Virus genome (UHGV): UHGV-0256221
DNA: 22,773 nt
Strand: one strand, 5' to 3'
Source of the DNA: a virus
This document shows positions 1 to 12,600 of this stretch, one piece after another. Both the position numbers and the translations under genes were made by a program. The notes under the pieces are model-generated. The model worked only from the letters and a program-made list of their open reading frames with translations, made no database searches and was not told where the DNA came from. Every line of letters begins with the position of its first letter. The stretch's first letter is position 1.

Positions 1-204
1 AATTGATACCACGCCAGCCTCCGCAAACCTCCGACAAAAACACCTCAAGATCCCCATCAAATCAGCCTTTCCAAAAATTATACTGTTTGCATGTACAGTC
101 AACCTACGACATCATAAGTCATGGTTTTTGTGTCCACCAGCGCGTCCATATCCTATGATGGACACATAACCTCCCGTTCTGATGGACACACGCAGGGACA
201 AATC

Positions 205-1434
205 ATGGCTATTTCAGATAGTTATCTAAAGTCGTGCCTTGGGCGCGAACGAGACAAAGTTGAAGAAAAGGCAGACCGTGATGGTCTGTGGGTACGCATC
301 TCTAAAAAGGGGGCCGTTACTTTTTTCTACCGATTCCGCTTCCTGGGCAAACAGGACAAGATGACGATCGGCAGCTATCCGGAGTTCGGATTAAAAGCCG
401 CGCGCGATGAAGTCGCTAAGTGGGCCGCCATACTTGCCCGTGGCGAAAACCCACGGATCCGGCAAAGCCTCGACAAAGCCAAGATTAATAGGCAGTACAC
501 CTTCGAAGAGCTGTTTCGAGAATGGCATTCGATGGTGTGTGTTCAGAAAGAAACGGCAGGGCAGATTTTACGTACATTCGAATTGCACGTTTTCCCCAAG
601 CTTGGTAAATACCCTGCGCATCAGCTCACGCTGCATAACTGGCTCACTGTCCTTGACCGATTGGCCCAGGGGTACAGCGAGATCACCCGGCGCGTAATAA
701 GCAACGGCAAGCAGTGCTACTCTTGGGCAGTAAAACGCCAATTACTTGAGGTGAATCCTCTGTCTGAAATGTCAGGCCGTGACTTCGGTATTCAGAAACA
801 AATGGGGGAGCGAACTCTTGACCGTAATGAATTAGCTATGGTCTGGCGTGCTATCGACGATTCTCGCCTTATTGAGCGAAACAAGATCCTCTATAAATTA
901 TGCCTGATATGGGCGTGCAGGGTTGGAGAACTGCGGCAGGCAGAAACCGCGCATTTCGATTTCGAAGAAGGGATCTGGACCGTGCCATGGGAAAACCATA
1001 AGACGGGGCGGAAGAGTAAGAAACCGATAATCCGTCCAATTATTCCTGAAATGCTTCCGCTGATACAACGAGCCATTGAGCTGGCGCCGGGCCGCTTTGT
1101 TTTCTCAAAATATGAAGACAAGCCGATGAGCGAGGGCTTCCACATGAGCATCAGCAGTAACCTGGTCAAGTTCATGCTGAAGGCGTACAACGAGCAGGTG
1201 CCGCACTTCACTATTCACGATCTGCGCAGGACTGCGCGAACTAATTTTTCTGACCTGACAGAACCACATATAGCAGAGATCATGCTGGGGCATAAGTTGC
1301 CGGGTGTATGGTCTGTCTATGACAAGTATTCGTATGTAGAGGAAATGCGGGAGGCTTACGGTAAGTGGTGGGCCCGACTGATGAGCATCGTCGAGCCCGA
1401 TGTTTTAGAGTTCACGCCGCGTCAGGTCGGGTAA
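205..1434 (+). CDS. int: Tyrosine integrase, P4-like
   Basis: ORF 121..1434; N-terminus resembles P4-type integrase arm-binding domain (GLWVRISKKGAVTFFYRFRF), C-terminal catalytic-type motifs (HDLRRTARTNFSDL ... YSYVEEMREAYGKWW). Start refined to in-frame ATG at 205 (MAISD...). Confidence 0.85.
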   Translation: MAISDSYLKSCLGRERDKVEEKADRDGLWVRISKKGAVTFFYRFRFLGKQDKMTIGSYPEFGLKAARDEVAKWAAILARGENPRIRQSLDKAKINRQYTFEELFREWHSMVCVQKETAGQILRTFELHVFPKLGKYPAHQLTLHNWLTVLDRLAQGYSEITRRVISNGKQCYSWAVKRQLLEVNPLSEMSGRDFGIQKQMGERTLDRNELAMVWRAIDDSRLIERNKILYKLCLIWACRVGELRQAETAHFDFEEGIWTVPWENHKTGRKSKKPIIRPIIPEMLPLIQRAIELAPGRFVFSKYEDKPMSEGFHMSISSNLVKFMLKAYNEQVPHFTIHDLRRTARTNFSDLTEPHIAEIMLGHKLPGVWSVYDKYSYVEEMREAYGKWWARLMSIVEPDVLEFTPRQVG

Positions 1435-1666
1435 GTCTGCCCTTATCATCACGCGTTAGATTCAGATGAGACATTGGCTTACGGGTTGCCCGTGACATTT
1501 CTTTAATCTGCCAGGCCGTTACTTTGGTCTTAAGCCATTTATTGGGGCCGCCCATGTACGCGCAATCAGGTTCAGGAAAGGGATTCTCTTTTGTGTCTCT
1601 CTTCCTGTAACGTTCGAGAGTGCGTGAAGATATGCGCAGCTGATCGCAGACGTCCTTGGTACTCAT
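1412..1666 (-). CDS. AlpA/Xis-family small DNA-binding protein (putative excisionase or regulator)
   Basis: ORF 1412..1696; small basic protein, MSTKDVCDQLRISSRTLERYRK HTH-like N-terminus; adjacent and convergent to integrase, 3' ends overlap. Start taken at internal Met (MSTKD). Confidence 0.55.
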   Translation of the reverse strand: MSTKDVCDQLRISSRTLERYRKRDTKENPFPEPDCAYMGGPNKWLKTKVTAWQIKEMSRATRKPMSHLNLTRDDKGRLTRPDAA

Positions 1667-1736
1667 CAACTCAAATTTATTCGTTGTTTTGCTCATCTTT
1701 GTTCTCCAGTGGCCCCGGCGGGGCCATCGTGAATTT

Positions 1737-2440: not shown

Positions 2441-3535
2441 TTAGTTCGCGTATTCCGGTTTCATGTCGTCGAGGGTGATACGGAACTGGTCATACAGTTC
2501 GTCGCCCAGGTGGCGGCGCGCCGCGGTAAGCGCTGATTCGGCCTTCGCAAACAGTTCTGCCGCGTCTGGTTCGCCGGGATTAGGCAGAGAGTTAATCGCC
2601 GCCTCGACTTTGTTGCGGTGATCCACCAGGTAGTAACGCTTAACGGCTTTGTTCTTCAGTTCGGTGAACAGTGCGGTACCCAGCAGCGCTTTCTGAGATT
2701 CGATATCCGCACGGATGGCTTTGGCCTGGTCGACGGAGCTGGCAGCTTCAATGCGATCACGAAGTTCGCCGGCTACATTGTCCGCGTTTGTTACCGATTG
2801 CTGATCGCAGCTGGCTGTAGTCACCGTCTCCCCAGTAATTTCGGTAACGCTCATTCGCTGTGGCGCTGGATTGATTTCCCGCTCTGGCTTGTCCTCAATC
2901 TCATCAGCGCTGTAAACGCCAAGAATTACATCTGGGCAATACAGTCGCGCCCAGCGCTTGACTGCGAGATATGCGAGTTGTTGACGGGGATCACTTGCCC
3001 AAAGTGTTGAGTTACGGACCTGAGCCTGAGATAGCATGAGCACCAACTCGCGTGGTTCATCCTCACCTTTCATAGTTGCCCATACTCGAATCCCAACGCC
3101 TGCTTCATCCTTTAAATCCCAGCCAGGGGCGATGTATTCATTCCCTTTGCCGCTGGTTTTCTTAATGAAGCGTCCAACGATATTTTCCCATTTCCCAAAC
3201 CAGTCATAATGAATACGGTCTTTCGTTGGGGACATGTTGGTAATAACCGCGTTGACCAACTGAGCCTCATACCCTAGGACTCCGCTATTGCCTACAATAT
3301 GAGTCTTCTGCGCGACTGCGAACGGGTCCATTCCCCAGCGGGCTGCCTGCATAACTACGGCCATACATGCGTCAGGCTTCTCGCGGAAATGACTCGGAAC
3401 GAATGCGCCGCTATTTGCCATCACGACTGATAATGTGCGCAGGCGGTCAAATAACTCGCCATTTGTTAAAATGGAGATGTTGTCGATCATTTGCGTCTTG
3501 TTTTCTGTGGTCGAAATTGCTGTAGACATGTTCAT
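2441..3535 (-). CDS. recT: RecT-family single-strand annealing recombinase
   Basis: 364 aa, recognised as RecT-like; immediately downstream of the recE-like gene with a 6-bp gap, as in Rac recE-recT. Confidence 0.8.
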   Translation of the reverse strand: MNMSTAISTTENKTQMIDNISILTNGELFDRLRTLSVVMANSGAFVPSHFREKPDACMAVVMQAARWGMDPFAVAQKTHIVGNSGVLGYEAQLVNAVITNMSPTKDRIHYDWFGKWENIVGRFIKKTSGKGNEYIAPGWDLKDEAGVGIRVWATMKGEDEPRELVLMLSQAQVRNSTLWASDPRQQLAYLAVKRWARLYCPDVILGVYSADEIEDKPEREINPAPQRMSVTEITGETVTTASCDQQSVTNADNVAGELRDRIEAASSVDQAKAIRADIESQKALLGTALFTELKNKAVKRYYLVDHRNKVEAAINSLPNPGEPDAAELFAKAESALTAARRHLGDELYDQFRITLDDMKPEYAN

Positions 3536-3541
3536 TTCCCC

Positions 3542-6500
3542 TTATGCCAAACGCAGCGCTTCAAGGCGGCGCATATCGAAATCATTCAGTTCGTCGGTGT
3601 AGTCGGCGGTGATCGGCGCTGGCCACTCACCCGTATCAAATCCGGTTGCGATGGCTCGCATGGCATTTCGATACTCGAGCATGCCCAGTTCCAGCAGTTC
3701 AGTGGACGCTTCAATAATGGCGATCCAGTGGTAGTTCTCGTCTTTGTTGACGAAAATCCAGAAGAACTGGTCAAGCGCTGCCGTCTCGCAGTACATGGCC
3801 GCGCTTAGGTGATAATCGCGGTCGATGATTTCGCGGTGTAACTTGGCGCGCAGACCTTCCTGTTTGATGTTCCACATGCTGATGGTTTTCAGGTCGGCAC
3901 CGATGCGCACACCGTCCAGGTCGATTTCCAGATCCGGACGTACACGGACTTCCAGCCCGGTTTCGTCGTCGAACCCGAAATAACTCACTTCTACAGCGCG
4001 GTTCGGGTGCGTTAGCAGCTTGCCGGCGGTCGGGTGCTGGAGCAGAGCTTTCTGGATATTCAGCGCGGTACTTAGCTGCTGGCGGGTGACCAGTACTTTT
4101 CCTTCAGGATTCTCGCGCCATGCATCGATAAGTTCGTCGGCAAATACAGCACCCGGGTTTACTGCCTTCACGGCCTGAATCAGATCTGCCTTCGTGCCGG
4201 ATACTTTCAGTGGCTGCGGCTTCTGCGCTTCCTGCGCGACCAGATCAGGATTGATGATTGCCAGTTGCTCAAGCAGCGAGTCGCGGCTACCGCTGGTTTT
4301 TACCGGCGCAGGCTTATTGGATTCTTCCTCTACCAAATCGGCGTTGATGACCGCCAGTTGCTCCAACAGCGCGTCGCGGCTGCCGCTGGTTTTCACTTGA
4401 GCGGGCAGGGTAGCGTTGTACTCTTTGATGCATGCTTTCATGGCAGCAGCAGTGAAGTTTTTTTCGTCGCCAACAATCCGCTTAAACTCAGCAGGCAATT
4501 CGAGATACGCCAGACCGATCGCGTCTTTATCGCCGCCTAAAGGCACTTGAGCGGGCAGGGTAGCGTTGTGCGCTTCCAGTAGCGCTTTGATATCGTCAGC
4601 AGATAGCGGCGCTGGCAGGCTAGTGTTGTACTCTTCCAGTAACGCTTTGATATCTTCGACTGACAGCAGCGCCTGCAGGCTGGCATTGTATTCATCGATA
4701 AACGCGCGGATCGTTGCGGTTGTCGTGAATGCGCCTTCCGGGATTTCTGGCTCAACGCTGAATTCAGCATCCAGTTGCTCAGGTTGCAGCGCCAGTGCAT
4801 GTACCAGGTTCCCCATATCCAGAACCGGAGAGCGTTCCTTCGTGATGGTCTTCTCAACATGGCGCGCATTGAAGTACATCAGGCTCACGCGAGCATCTTT
4901 AACCTGGGTGCTGCTGATACCGTTGGCGGCGTGATATACCTCGTTTGGTAAACCTTCATAACGGCCAGGCTCGAAGAATGCCGGGTACTCGATGGCTGGT
5001 TCTGCCTGCAGGTCTTCCGGCTCGCTGGCTGTTTCCATCGGCACTAATTCCTGTGCTGTGTCGTCTGCCGGAATCGGCGCTTCAGTTGTCAGAGTTTCCT
5101 GCTTGTTGGTGTCATGCTCCTGCGTGTCCAGTTCTTCTTTCAAACCGGATTCCATCGCTGCATATGTTGCATCACCCATCACAGCACCGCAGTCCTGGCA
5201 ATGCCCGCCACCAATAGCGCCGCATCCGGTACACACGGTTTCCGTTACGGTATCTGCCTGCGAATCATCTTCCACAGTACCTTCGCCTGCTGGTAACGCA
5301 GCGCTATTTTCGGCTTGGGGTTGCTCAGTCGTTTCCATCTGGCCATTGTTGGTGGTCTCGCTTTTGTTGCCGTAAAGTTTTGAGTTCGCCATCAAACCCT
5401 CAACCGAAAAGATGCCACCGCCAACGTTGGTGACTTCAGGCTGTTTAGTAGATGTCAGGTCTTCGCGCACCCACTTCGGATCTTCCGGGTCGCTGATTCC
5501 ATCAACAAATTCCCCGCGCTCCGCTGCGAGTGTGTCACTGATTTCCTTATCCCAGCTTTGTGCAGGGTTATGGCGAGCAGCCTTCAATGTTTCATCAGAA
5601 GGTTTTTCGTGGTTGCTTTCTGTCAGGTTAGCGTTGATGTATCCACTGAGACGGCCGGGATACTGGTAATGCTCTGGGTGGCACTCCCTGATCAGCGCGA
5701 AAATGGCTGCGCGGGAGTAATCGAGTATTCCGGCACGTTTGCGAAGAGCTGCTGACCATTCTTTGAAAGGGCTTTCTTTTTTGCTGACGATCTCTTTCGC
5801 CCGACGATAAACACCACCAGGAATGTCGTAGATGTTAAAGTCCATCGGTAGTGTGGCGAGTGCAATTTCAATGTCTAATGAGTCCAGCGTGTGGGTTAAC
5901 TCAGGGTTACGGTCGGTTTTATTGCCGCCGCCTGCGTTTGTGCCTACGTCAGTTCGTGTAACCGACTGTTTATCCAGCGTCGCCTTATTATGTTTTGCGA
6001 ACCACTTCGCCGTTACATCGTCGCGGGAAACGCGATCGCTCTGATGTGTATTGATCCATTCTGCAAAGAAGGTGATCAGGTCATTGAGCATCGGAGCTTT
6101 ACCGTCCACCGGCCAGATTGATTTTGTGGCCGTAAACAGGTCGGCCAGTGTTTCCGGGAACACGTGTTCAATAGGGCGAGTTTTGAAATCACGCGCGGAC
6201 AGCAATACGTTCTGTGCGTATGTTTCATCCATATCCAGCTCTACACGCGTAATCTCCTGCAACTGCTCAGTAGTCAGCGTATCGAAAAGACCGTACAGCC
6301 AGGTGCCGAGTACTTTTTTCTCATATGGAAATTTGCCGTAGGCGAACAGGTCAACAGCTTCCTTCTCTGTTTCTTGCGTAGTGGTTACTGCGTGCGCATC
6401 GGTAGACGCGGTGGCATCGGCGGCAGCCGCTGGTGTGCTTTCATTGTGAAATGCATCATCAGGCTTGCTGCCTGGCTTCAGTTGCCAGGTGCGCATGTCT

Positions 6501-6748
6501 TCCGCCAGCTCATAGCGTTCGCACCAGGTCAAATCAACGGTGCTTTCTTCCGGGAGGTCATTAAATACGGGAAAATCAGTGCGGATCGGCTTCTGATAAT
6601 CTTTACCGCGTCCGGTCTCGATATTCGCATCTTCCAGTTCAACATCGAGCTGGAGATTGGCGCGAGCTTCGGTTTTTGCCGTGAACCAGACGACTGCGTC
6701 TGGCTTGCCGGATTTCTGAGTGGCTTTAACCACGTAGAAGAATTCCAT
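3542..6748 (-). CDS. recE: RecE-like exonuclease VIII (large multidomain, C-terminal nuclease domain)
   Basis: 1068 aa; C-terminal region resembles the RecE PD-(D/E)xK nuclease domain; central acidic linker with tandem repeats and a Cys4 cluster; GAGGA RBS upstream of the ATG at 6748. Confidence 0.7.
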   Translation of the reverse strand: MEFFYVVKATQKSGKPDAVVWFTAKTEARANLQLDVELEDANIETGRGKDYQKPIRTDFPVFNDLPEESTVDLTWCERYELAEDMRTWQLKPGSKPDDAFHNESTPAAAADATASTDAHAVTTTQETEKEAVDLFAYGKFPYEKKVLGTWLYGLFDTLTTEQLQEITRVELDMDETYAQNVLLSARDFKTRPIEHVFPETLADLFTATKSIWPVDGKAPMLNDLITFFAEWINTHQSDRVSRDDVTAKWFAKHNKATLDKQSVTRTDVGTNAGGGNKTDRNPELTHTLDSLDIEIALATLPMDFNIYDIPGGVYRRAKEIVSKKESPFKEWSAALRKRAGILDYSRAAIFALIRECHPEHYQYPGRLSGYINANLTESNHEKPSDETLKAARHNPAQSWDKEISDTLAAERGEFVDGISDPEDPKWVREDLTSTKQPEVTNVGGGIFSVEGLMANSKLYGNKSETTNNGQMETTEQPQAENSAALPAGEGTVEDDSQADTVTETVCTGCGAIGGGHCQDCGAVMGDATYAAMESGLKEELDTQEHDTNKQETLTTEAPIPADDTAQELVPMETASEPEDLQAEPAIEYPAFFEPGRYEGLPNEVYHAANGISSTQVKDARVSLMYFNARHVEKTITKERSPVLDMGNLVHALALQPEQLDAEFSVEPEIPEGAFTTTATIRAFIDEYNASLQALLSVEDIKALLEEYNTSLPAPLSADDIKALLEAHNATLPAQVPLGGDKDAIGLAYLELPAEFKRIVGDEKNFTAAAMKACIKEYNATLPAQVKTSGSRDALLEQLAVINADLVEEESNKPAPVKTSGSRDSLLEQLAIINPDLVAQEAQKPQPLKVSGTKADLIQAVKAVNPGAVFADELIDAWRENPEGKVLVTRQQLSTALNIQKALLQHPTAGKLLTHPNRAVEVSYFGFDDETGLEVRVRPDLEIDLDGVRIGADLKTISMWNIKQEGLRAKLHREIIDRDYHLSAAMYCETAALDQFFWIFVNKDENYHWIAIIEASTELLELGMLEYRNAMRAIATGFDTGEWPAPITADYTDELNDFDMRRLEALRLA
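4240..4720. repeat. Degenerate in-frame tandem repeats (about 60 and 90 bp units) inside recE
   Basis: Near-identical DNA blocks such as gccagttgctc(a/c)a(g/a)cagcg(a/c)gtcgcggct(a/g)ccgctggtttt and cacttgagcgggcagggtagcgttgt occur twice or more; encode repeated LPAQV / SGSRD(A/S)LLEQLA(V/I)IN peptide units. Confidence 0.7.
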
Positions 6749-6879: not shown

Positions 6880-7377
6880 TTATAAATTTCTGGCGAATAA
6901 GCCGTGATTTGCTTCGCGGAAGTCTTTTATTGCTTCCGCTGCCTTTTCTAATTCAACAAAATTTCCTACCGTGTATCTTTTCCCATCAACGCGACAGATG
7001 GCTCTCCAGCGCTGCTTACCCTTGTGCCAGTACACGCCTTTCACTCCGCTTGTGTTGTTCTTCTGGAGTGACTTGTTGAAGTTGTTCTGCGAACAAGTTG
7101 CTTCGCGCAGATTCTTCAATCGGTTGTCAGAGCACTTCCCATTTACATGGTCAATCTGGTCTTCAGGCCATTTACCATGTACGTAGAACCAGGCCAGGCG
7201 GTGTGCGCGATACTTTTTCCCATCAATGATGATTCGAATGTATCCGCGTGAATCAAGATGACCTGCAACTTCACCTGCGGCAACGCGACCACGTTTTTCT
7301 AACCAGGTAAAATCACCTGTTTCCGGTGAGTAGCTGAGTAATTCTTTCAGGCGCTCAAGTGGTAACTTCTCGCTCAT
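6880..7377 (-). CDS. HNH endonuclease with AP2-like DNA-binding domain
   Basis: ORF 6880..7425; HNH-type motif (IDHVNGKCSDNRLKNLREAT) plus AP2-like segment (KGVYWHKGKQRWRA). Start refined to ATG at 7377 (MSEKLPLERL). Confidence 0.65.
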   Translation of the reverse strand: MSEKLPLERLKELLSYSPETGDFTWLEKRGRVAAGEVAGHLDSRGYIRIIIDGKKYRAHRLAWFYVHGKWPEDQIDHVNGKCSDNRLKNLREATCSQNNFNKSLQKNNTSGVKGVYWHKGKQRWRAICRVDGKRYTVGNFVELEKAAEAIKDFREANHGLFARNL

Positions 7378-7388
7378 ATCCGTCACCG

Positions 7389-7550
7389 TTAGCCTTCGTG
7401 AGCCATCTGGTCGAACGAAGCGCAACGTACTGAACAGTAATCACGTTGCTCGCGTTTCAACTGCGTGCCGTGGATAAAGAGCAGTTCGTTTTTAACTTCC
7501 TTCCCTTGCTTGATCGGCTTGCGGCAGTACGCGCATTTTTTCTCCTGCAT
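7389..7550 (-). CDS. Small zinc-ribbon protein (53 aa), not in the ORF track
   Basis: Hand translation: MQEKKCAYCRKPIKQGKEVKNELLFIHGTQLKREQRDYCSVRCASFDQMAHEG; CxxC ... CxxxC; GGAG RBS upstream; stop 12 bp before the HNH start. Position like Rac ydaE, homology unverified. Confidence 0.4.
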   Translation of the reverse strand: MQEKKCAYCRKPIKQGKEVKNELLFIHGTQLKREQRDYCSVRCASFDQMAHEG

Positions 7551-11607: not shown

Positions 11608-11691
11608 CCGGTTCAAAAATGGCGAAAGCCGCGGTGCGCGAACACCAACGGCTTTCAGGTGCAAAAACAGTGCGTAATTGCGGAGAACAGT

Positions 11692-12600
11692 ATGTCAAAC
11701 ACCGCTGAAATAATCAATTTCCCAAATAAAACCGAACAACCGGGAGGTCGTATGGCCGACCTGTCGAACGGGTATACCAAGGTCGCTAACGAGATCCAAC
11801 AGCTTAAGCCTCGCCTGAGACTGTCAGGCCGGGAATGGCAATGTTTTGAGGCGGTGATCTGGCTTACCTACGGCTGGAACAAGAAACAGGACCGCGTGAC
11901 AAATACGGTTATTGCCGAGCTTACGGGCCTGAGCGATACGCATGTATCGGACGCGCTCAAGTCTCTCGCAGAACGCAAAATCATCTTTTCACAGAAGCAG
12001 GGCATGATGAAAATCGTCGGTGTAAACACTGACCTTTCAGCATGGATTTTAGACAAACCGGAAACGGGAAGAAAATTCCCGAAAACGGGAAAATCCTTCC
12101 CGAAATCAGGAATAACCTTCCCGAAAACGGTAGACACCCAATACAAGAACAAGAACAGTATTAAAAGATCTTCGTCCGAGAATTCTGACGAATCCTCTGA
12201 CGCACGTCTGAAGAAATTTTTATCAACTCATCCTGAAGCTGCGGTCTACACACCATCCGGTGCGAAGTGGGGCTCTGCTGAAGACCTCAAGACAGCTAAG
12301 TGGATTTCCTCCAGGGTGAAGCTGATTAACCCAACCTGCAAAGCCCCGGACATGACCTCCTGGTCTAACACTGTTCGCCTGATGCGCCAGATAGACAACC
12401 GGTCGCACCAGGACATCTGCGCGCTGTATGACTGGGCTAGCAAACACCACTTCTGGCAGACCAACATCCTGAGTCCCGAAAGCCTGCGTAAGCAGTGGGA
12501 CAAGCTGACAATGCAACGCAACGCTGGTGGTGAGCAACGCACCGGAAAGCCAGATCTGGACTTCAACAACACTGACTGGGCCTATGGGGTGATGCCATGA
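11692..12600 (+). CDS. O: Replication initiator O (lambda O-like)
   Basis: ORF 11659..12600; start refined to ATG 11692 (MSNTAEIINFPN, GGAG RBS); N-terminus aligns with lambda O; ori iterons inside the gene; stop overlaps the P start. Confidence 0.8.
   Translation: MSNTAEIINFPNKTEQPGGRMADLSNGYTKVANEIQQLKPRLRLSGREWQCFEAVIWLTYGWNKKQDRVTNTVIAELTGLSDTHVSDALKSLAERKIIFSQKQGMMKIVGVNTDLSAWILDKPETGRKFPKTGKSFPKSGITFPKTVDTQYKNKNSIKRSSSENSDESSDARLKKFLSTHPEAAVYTPSGAKWGSAEDLKTAKWISSRVKLINPTCKAPDMTSWSNTVRLMRQIDNRSHQDICALYDWASKHHFWQTNILSPESLRKQWDKLTMQRNAGGEQRTGKPDLDFNNTDWAYGVMP
12055..12180. repeat. ori-lambda-like origin: four iterons at 21-bp spacing plus AT-rich tract
   Basis: AAACCGGAAACGGGAA, TTCCCGAAAACGGGAA, TTCCCGAAATCAGGAA, TTCCCGAAAACGGTAG starting near 12055, 12076, 12097, 12118; followed by caatacaagaacaagaacagtattaaaagatc. 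Confidence 0.7.

Follow-up and report, generated by a model that had tools for sequence, protein, structure and literature searches.

A predicted helical-repeat insert at the rim-loop position, and a Cys4 cassette, in the RecE-family exonuclease of a lambdoid or Rac-like prophage

The window considered here is the whole 22,773-nucleotide (nt) stretch of DNA from the virus genome UHGV-0256221, and the subject is its recE-family exonuclease gene, whose product contains a tandem array of repeated peptide units. These repeats are confidently predicted, by structure modelling, to form a folded, all-helical insert domain of about 207 amino acids (aa), and not a loose linker. The domain stands at the place of a rim loop of Rac RecE (exonuclease VIII). 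A second element, a four-cysteine (Cys4) cassette, is found in the acidic linker of the same protein. The reading that we favour, by a modest balance of probability, is that the protein is an intact RecE-family 5'-3' recombination exonuclease of a lambdoid prophage, in which the insert is an arm for capture or guidance of DNA ends and the Cys4 cassette is a separate docking module.

Tandem coding repeats in this gene had been noticed from the letters alone (the sequence-only reading), and they are real: all four quoted peptides are present, and the DNA repeats are found computationally. The peptides are IKALLEEYNTSLPAPL (aa 700–715, window 4604–4651), IKALLEAHNATLPAQV (aa 720–735, window 4544–4591), KTSGSRDALLEQLAVINADLV (aa 786–806, window 4331–4393) and KTSGSRDSLLEQLAIINPDLV (aa 817–837, window 4238–4300). 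Tandem Repeats Finder yields a repeat of period 60 at 4554–4690 (2.3 copies, 79% matches, score 169). A second repeat search produced a 60-nt family at 4401–4460, 4551–4610 and 4611–4670, with 65–80% identity, and a 93-nt pair at 4205–4297 and 4298–4390, with 74% identity. At the protein level, the best 14-residue self-match has the BLOSUM62 score of 62; 200 shuffled versions of the protein gave 28.7 ± 3.3, with 40 as the maximum. The repeats had been placed at 4240–5240; they do occur there, but the array, at 4115–4723, is larger and runs past the low end of that interval. The gene, the insert and its units, named A, B and C, are as follows.

3542–6748, minus strand: recE-family exonuclease gene, a single intact open reading frame (ORF) of 1068 aa
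4103–4723, minus strand: predicted helical-repeat insert domain, aa 676–882 (207 aa), at the position of Rac RecE loop 665–698
4664–4723, 4604–4663 and 4544–4603, minus strand: units A1, A2 and A3, 20 aa each (aa 676–695, 696–715 and 716–735)
4454–4543, minus strand: unit C, 30 aa (aa 736–765), carrying the type-2 allele GDKDAIGLAYLELPAEFKRIVGDEKNF, one of two allele types among the homologues
4394–4453, minus strand: unit A4, 20 aa (aa 766–785), which joins B1 in the most conserved motif
4301–4393, 4208–4300 and 4115–4207, minus strand: units B1, B2 and B3, 31 aa each (aa 786–816, 817–847 and 848–878)

The position of the insert comes from alignment with the Rac protein. HMMER with PDB entry 3H4R and BLAST with Rac RecE of E. 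coli K-12 align aa 603–715 and 883–1047; between FSVEPEIPEGAFTT and GKVLVT lie about 190 residues to which nothing in 3H4R or Rac RecE corresponds. The insertion site corresponds to residues 665–698 of Rac RecE, a 34-residue loop at the channel rim for which DNA capture is presumed (PMC11611040, section 2.3, a 2023 structural review). The Rac rim loop is disordered in the crystal and becomes partly visible once DNA is present (PMC11611040). As the insert aligns to this site, the repeats elaborate the rim loop and not an interdomain linker. The short helix EKAFLMEC of the Rac loop appears as the evident ancestor of unit A (IRAFIDEY).

AlphaFold2, applied to aa 668–884 alone with 58 aligned sequences, produced a model with the predicted local distance difference test score (pLDDT) of 89.5 and the predicted template-modelling score (pTM) of 0.63, the pLDDT of the five models being 87.9–89.5. 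The model is all-helical and has 11 helices. Each A unit is modelled as one 14-residue helix, B1 and B2 each as a helix, a kink and a helix, and B3 as one helix followed by a separate one. The full-length model is poor (mean pLDDT 54.5, pTM 0.27) and unusable for the nuclease domain, the linker and the Cys4 region; in Foldseek it recovered only 3H4R, and that weakly.

The insert is not peculiar to the window. A scan of 1.84 billion cluster representatives yielded 68 matches to it, of which the full-length ones are mostly RecE-sized and many others are short fragments; two of the 68 are stand-alone nucleases of about 425 aa with the same insert. P0171, P0178 and P0187, three long proteins in which eight stretches matched, were dropped as low-complexity repeat proteins. 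In 58–59 homologues many positions of the insert are invariant or almost so, and, as judged from the aligned sequences, the insert is conserved to the same degree as the catalytic core. The junction of A4 and B1, MKACIKEYNATLPxxVKTSGSRDALLEQLA, is almost identical from Escherichia to Serratia, with the whole proteins only about 50–60% identical. Between the copies within the gene, codon positions 1 and 2 agree more than position 3 in most pairs, for instance 0.75 vs 0.25 for A1 and A4, and 0.81 vs 0.61 for B1 and B2. Hence the duplicates are old and under purifying selection.

We surveyed the size of the insert by the distance between the catalytic His and the RPD motif in about 300 sequences, drawn from the 120 best hits at the protein level, from 80 species-representative genomes and from 200 loci of IMG/VR. 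There are six size classes, and two of them account for more than 90% of the sequences.

Distance 91: no insert (Rac type), 17 sequences
Distance 134: single A.B, 6 sequences
Distance 183: AABB, 1 sequence
Distance 230–234: AACABB, 202 sequences
Distance 283–285: AAACABBB, the architecture of the window, 72 sequences
Distance 330: AACACACABB, with three identical 49-aa copies, 1 sequence

Neither an extra A alone (distance about 252) nor an extra B alone (about 263) was found in the sequences surveyed; the extra A and extra B always occur together. Both types of the C allele are seen with two A and two B units as well as with three and three. The largest form belongs to RecE of Citrobacter portucalensis (P0044), where the three identical tandem copies are of the 49-aa C.A unit. 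This is the sole sign of recent expansion in the survey, and the identity of the copies points to such an event.

The closest relative is an E. coli contig (locus L082). Its recE DNA is mostly 96–100% identical up to nt 2067 of the gene, with the lowest 90-nt block at 87%; then the identity drops to 58–82% over nt 2071–2430 and is back to 87–96% afterwards. In the divergent stretch and just after it there are two gaps, one of 60 nt, equal to one A, and one of 93 nt, equal to one B. One contiguous duplication as the source of the extra A and the extra B was ruled out, since these are two separate gaps about 280 nt apart. The best protein match to the window insert in the sample is only 74–75%. 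By the divergent patch with its A and B gaps, together with the weak insert matches, the long arm thus arrived, or persists, as a recombination patch.

The second element had been described as a Cys cluster at about 5165–5235. It is present, with the cysteines at aa 506–521, and it is kept in homologues: among the 120 closest, about 40 have it as the motif CTGCGA[IV]GGGHCP[DE]C with hardly any variation.

5105–5239, minus strand: Cys4 cassette, aa 504–548 (45 aa), with the four cysteines at 5186–5233

The candidate ligands are C506, C509, C517 and C520, forming two CxxC pairs. In the homologue alignment the cassette behaves as a clean presence/absence indel within the hypervariable acidic linker. 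The zinc-finger-like element had been held to be no part of the classical description of Rac RecE. A lack of it in Rac RecE itself would be wrong, as E. coli K-12 RecE has C517, C520, C528 and C531 followed by GAVMGDATY. As a remark on the published descriptions it was fair, those consulted being silent on this point, but as a contrast with the Rac sequence it fails. The N-terminal region of RecE is called "of unknown function" in the structural review (PMC11611040), and a term search of its main text for words beginning with "zinc" or "cysteine" returned none. Our literature searches found no zinc or cysteine description of RecE, and a 2026 truncation study is also silent.

Among 82 loci the Cys4 module occurs only in RecE. 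A wider search, by tblastn against phage genomes and a motif pattern scan of IMG/VR, placed it in other proteins. It is seen in Rac-type and Gifsy-type RecE; in many proteins of 817–862 aa with a C-terminal Rv2179c-like 3'-5' exonuclease (DnaQ-like), with or without the Exonuc_VIII N-terminus; and, together with GDATY, at the very C-terminus of D12-class Dam methylases from P2-like phages (L163:1652–2623, L165:661–1644, L192, L193). Across the five protein contexts compared, three of the cysteines, two glycines and the Thr of D-A-T-Y are invariant, and the fourth Cys and most other motif positions are conserved at 90% or more. With the 47-aa Dam tail as query, a word-index protein search gave no matches, as so short a query does not suffice for it. 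Judging by these occurrences, Cys4 is a portable cassette of about 30–45 aa with the pattern CxxCG-x6-7-CP[D/E]; it is very probably a zinc knuckle. As in short zinc knuckles of the rubredoxin-like kind and in zinc ribbons, there are two CxxCG knuckles, each pair is followed by a conserved Gly, and the second pair includes a Pro; unlike them, its knuckles are only seven residues apart and are followed by the invariant tail GAVMGDATY.

Aeromonas phage 13AhydR10PP encodes a hypothetical protein of 335 aa (L164:2470–3477) with the Cys4 module, in which the first Cys pair is spaced differently and a repeated stretch EEAP[IL]KPAKV stands on both sides. Two IMG/VR proteins of about 820 aa (L171, L201) combine a RecE-like or unrelated N-terminus and the RecE linker with Cys4, and have the Rv2179c-like 3'-5' exonuclease in place of PD-(D/E)XK; PMC12315714 mentions DnaQ-like nucleases of lambdoid Rec modules, and these two proteins may be such nucleases.

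On this established base of anatomy, insert position, conservation, size classes, mosaicism and Cys4 spread, a role for the arm may be proposed. The insert would have grown by serial duplication of a helix–loop–helix A.B unit with a weak likeness to the SAP motif. An insert into a surface loop must exit and re-enter the core at nearly one point, and each layer of the arm would comprise one outgoing unit (A) and one returning unit (B). The joint occurrence of the extra A and the extra B would then be observed because an out-and-back arm lengthens by one unit per limb. Four arms per ring might serve as extended elements for capture or guidance of DNA ends, and possibly as a landing site for the C-terminal domain of RecT. 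For the insert, we infer the out-and-back geometry, DNA capture and RecT docking; for Cys4, zinc binding and partner docking. We also put forward, tentatively and as a possibility only, a bolder version: a length-quantised helical arm grown from the RecE capture loop, with A and B added in pairs and arm length selectable and exchangeable, plus a mobile peptide, anchored by the zinc knuckle, that passes as a cassette among RecE nucleases, DnaQ-like exonuclease fusions, Dam methylases of P2-like phages and further phage proteins and would be their common address tag for a host or phage partner.

The likeness to SAP was considered in some detail. Sub-threshold Pfam matches to SAP, SAP_new25 and FANC_SAP recur on the B units, and one to Thymopoietin falls on the A region. 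The best SAP match is on B3, and in the homologues the SAP scores are 12–15 bits. As SAP stayed below the threshold both in the window protein and in the homologues, a SAP domain could not be assigned. The A.B junction, as modelled, may have in common with SAP, or helix-extended-helix, motifs (PF02037) a helix, an extended loop with a conserved Gly and a helix, with the pattern L-K-x-S/T-G-x-K/R-x-x-L. The differences from SAP are a longer loop, an acidic domain, an alignment confined to the second half of the profile, and the lack of a structural match. DSSP on the insert model assigns helix, loop, helix at each A.B junction, with an invariant Gly, the loop being longer than in SAP, and no SAP match is returned by Foldseek. 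In addition, the helix cap SG(S)RDALLEQ of the B1 and B2 peptides (4208–4393) resembles the actin-binding stretch GRDALLDQI of N-WASP WH2 (E = 0.0022 among PDB sequences), which we judge to be chance.

Several observations weigh against the reading of the insert as a capture arm and of Cys4 as a docking module. Foldseek with the insert model found no analogue in PDB or BFVD (best E = 0.67 and 0.42, TM about 0.1), so that the insert could be placed in no fold family, and the SAP PF02037 threshold was not reached, the best score being 20.3 bits vs 23.9 and covering profile positions 19–32 only. A profile of the A.B motif, compared with PDB sequences, hit only N-WASP WH2 and designed helical proteins, a match of the helix cap SG-RDALL-Q that was set aside as chance. 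The net charge of the insert is −13. The pairing of A with B and the hairpin geometry derive from unit counts and topology only, and the DNA-capture role of the Rac loop itself is only presumed (PMC11611040). Recombination may have spread the long and the short allele as haplotypes of old standing, in which case the sequences of the size survey are not independent. As for Cys4, about two thirds of close homologues are without it, and its region has a block pLDDT of about 34–36 in the AlphaFold2 model. Since most close homologues do without the module, it is dispensable for the basic function.

The partner gene bears on the strongest rival of the capture arm.

2441–3535, minus strand: recT, 364 aa, 6 nt downstream of recE, with Pfam RecT at aa 38–219 (E = 2.7e-40)
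2441–2860, minus strand: RecT C-terminal extension, aa ~225–364 (about 125–140 aa), without a Pfam family

The extension has a conserved motif, LGTxL[F/Y]TELKNK. In this rival the insert mainly docks the C-terminal domain of RecT, like the lambda Red-beta domain on lambda Exo, and the copy number sets how many RecT monomers are held near the emerging single strand. We consider it rather doubtful. In its favour, a homologous RecT extension follows insert-bearing recE at 153 of 155 loci and Rac-type recE at none of 15 (at three of the 153, the annealing-protein core was not detected by BLAST), and the acidic, invariant surface motifs suit protein contact better than DNA contact. On the other hand, this association amounts in essence to a single contrast of two lineages, which also differ in their nuclease cores, and the RecT length does not follow the repeat number. 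A dependence of RecT length on repeat number was rejected, as the single A.B form and the expanded forms both have long RecT. Separately, the extension accompanies insert-bearing RecE even when the RecT core is of a divergent subtype (L063–L065, L072, L073).

The lambda pair provides the model for such docking. Lambda Exo is a ring-forming 5'-3' PD-(D/E)XK exonuclease encoded beside an annealing protein, and Red-beta's C-terminal domain binds the nuclease (PMC11611040). The window likewise has a PD-(D/E)XK exonuclease gene beside an annealing-protein gene, as known here from sequence. Unlike the window RecE, lambda Exo is a single domain of 226 aa without the N-terminal region, the rim insert or Cys4.

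For Cys4, the alternative to docking is that the cluster works as a zinc finger which binds DNA and so assists the nuclease in holding it. We regard it as unlikely. It would agree with the two CxxCG knuckles, with the occurrence of the module only in DNA-acting enzymes (nucleases and methylases) and with weak Pfam zinc-ribbon matches, but no curated zinc-ribbon family of Pfam reaches its threshold (Zn_Ribbon_TF 14.3 bits vs 29, ZnF_RZ-type 11.9 vs 27). Moreover, the module has few or no basic residues, its flanks in the exonuclease fusions are very acidic, and conservation is highest in the cysteine-free stretch GAVMGDATY, which has the look of a docking motif. Since basic residues are few or absent and the non-ligand stretch is extremely conserved, zinc-stabilised docking seems likelier than a DNA-binding finger. 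Most likely, as far as the residues indicate, the Cys4 module presents a docking motif for a common partner and does not itself bind DNA.

Two other readings of the insert have very little probability. The first is a flexible, fast-changing linker whose copy number shifts by slipped-strand events, in the style of a contingency locus. The suggestion that the repeats are a variable protein-interaction linker, able to expand and contract, holds insofar as homologues do differ by whole units, with P0044 as an example; it does not hold otherwise, as the domain is confidently predicted to be folded, is conserved and is not slippage-prone. Units A3 and A4 share an exact run of 26 nt, which could support unequal recombination across the C.A unit; such exchange would remove or multiply this unit, as in P0110 and P0044. 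The other longest in-register exact runs are of 11–12 nt, and the copies are at best 74–75% identical in DNA. With this identity, and with 26 nt as the longest in-register exact run, the locus is thus not slippage-prone. The confident fold prediction, the amino-acid conservation across genera, the divergence of the copies, highest at third codon positions, and the small number of size classes all speak against a contingency linker, and we consider it already largely refuted.

The second reading, in which the acidic arm is a regulatory lid or a DNA mimic, occupying or gating the channel entrance up to its displacement by a proper DNA end or by RecT, would suit the negative charge of the insert and its site at the entrance rim, but is just as improbable, since the charge is not distinctive (by charge count the whole protein is acidic, the nuclease core included) and no sequence or structural likeness to known DNA mimics was found with Foldseek in PDB and BFVD. 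The capture arm with a separate docking module remains the reading that we prefer.

The rest of the protein is laid out as follows.

6407–6742, minus strand: N-terminal Exonuc_VIII domain, aa 3–114 (Pfam PF06630), aligned with Rac RecE aa 6–119
5549–6358, minus strand: central helical domain, aa 131–400, of unknown function, with block pLDDT mostly 75–90, aligned with Rac RecE
4982–5548, minus strand: acidic interdomain linker, aa 401–589, net charge −32, with pLDDT 23–36 over most of it and a hypervariable, indel-rich alignment
4763–4981, minus strand: N-terminal part of the PD-(D/E)XK nuclease domain, aa 590–662, including the active-site His650 (4799–4801), aligned with PDB 3H4R and Rac RecE 598–664
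3545–4102, minus strand: nuclease catalytic core, aa 883–1068, aligned with Rac RecE 693–850
3932–3934, 3893–3895 and 3887–3889, minus strand, within 3545–4102: invariant core residues D939, D952 and K954

The central helical domain is the only confident part of the full-length AlphaFold2 model. Pfam recognises PF06630 Exonuc_VIII at aa 3–114 (71.9 bits, cut-off 25, E = 8.5e-20) and PF12684 DUF3799, a PD-(D/E)XK-like family, at aa 888–1044 (46.7 bits, cut-off 26). The NCBIfam model NF007259, the equivalog of Rac exodeoxyribonuclease VIII, scores 504.4 bits, below its cut-off of 1269. By domain content, catalytic residues and context, the window protein is a member of the RecE family and not a Rac RecE equivalog. 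The nearest database proteins are full-length, are annotated as "RecE family exodeoxyribonuclease" and come from Escherichia, Pseudocitrobacter, Kluyvera, Citrobacter, Klebsiella and Salmonella. The catalytic residues H650, D939, D952 and K954 (the His, Asp and Asp-x-Lys aligned with Rac RecE) are invariant in 59 homologues; hence the gene looks intact and functional.

Rac RecE (E. coli K-12 b1350; PDB 3H4R) has the same general plan: the Exonuc_VIII N-terminus, the central helical region, the acidic linker with Cys4, the C-terminal PD-(D/E)XK nuclease, whose catalytic His/Asp/Asp-x-Lys are shared too, and recT as the next gene downstream. However, the identity in the main aligned segments is only 21–31%, the rim loop is replaced by a segment of about 226 aa (aa 663–888) that holds the 207-aa domain, and the 364-aa RecT of the window has an extra C-terminal domain, compared to 269 aa for Rac RecT. 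The window RecE belongs to the type of Gifsy-1, Gifsy-2, HK225, mEp237 and SPN3UB, lambdoid phages whose RecE has the same insert-bearing nuclease domain, with the tblastn identity of 53–58% over the whole insert. Their match spans 465 nt, that is, 155 residues vs the 207-residue query, and the window architecture AAACABBB has one more A and one more B. The Cys4 cassette of the window is absent from the Salmonella homologues sampled. Salmonella Gifsy recET can be activated by mutation and then suppresses recombination defects, so that recET function in the Gifsy prophages is known from genetics (PMC3121763).

The surrounding genes encode an integrase, an excisionase, a Kil-like protein, a CI-like repressor, a CII-like activator, O-like and P-like replication proteins and a DNA methyltransferase. 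By this gene content, the neighbourhood is the early-left arm and immunity–replication region of a lambdoid or Rac-like prophage. The integrase gene (121–1434, plus strand; domains Arm-DNA-bind_3, Phage_int_M and Phage_integrase) converges on the excisionase gene (1412–1696, minus strand) with an overlap of 23 nt; its direction is opposite to that of recET, which differs from Rac and L082. No transfer RNA gene marking an attachment site was found in the window. Directly upstream of recE, between kil and recE, there is an ORF of 181 aa (6880–7425, minus strand) with HNH_3 at 52.5 bits, above the cut-off, and a sub-threshold AP2 match; by these domains it looks like a homing endonuclease. L082, the nearest relative, is without an HNH gene and has YdaE and DUF1482 genes in that place. 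The O-like replication initiator gene (11659–12600) contains a 21-nt tandem repeat at 12058–12130 (3.5 copies, 78% matches), probably the origin iterons, as in lambda.

As a member of the RecE family the gene is ordinary. Two of its features are different in this respect: for the size-quantised helical arm replacing the capture loop, and for the promiscuous Cys4 cassette, we could not find a published description. RecE and RecT are the workhorse of recombineering. To our knowledge, the structural study of RecE covers the Rac nuclease domain only. Most enterobacterial prophage RecE differ from Rac at the presumed DNA-catching loop, where they have a conserved, size-quantised helical arm, and Rac RecE itself holds an overlooked Cys4 module common to unrelated phage DNA enzymes. 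The arm and the Cys4 module bear on DNA-end capture, on the coupling of nuclease and annealase, and on the reason for the different behaviour of full-length RecE and the bare nuclease domain. If it is true that Cys4 is an address tag, some of what the N-terminal region of RecE contributes, long without an explanation, could be accounted for.

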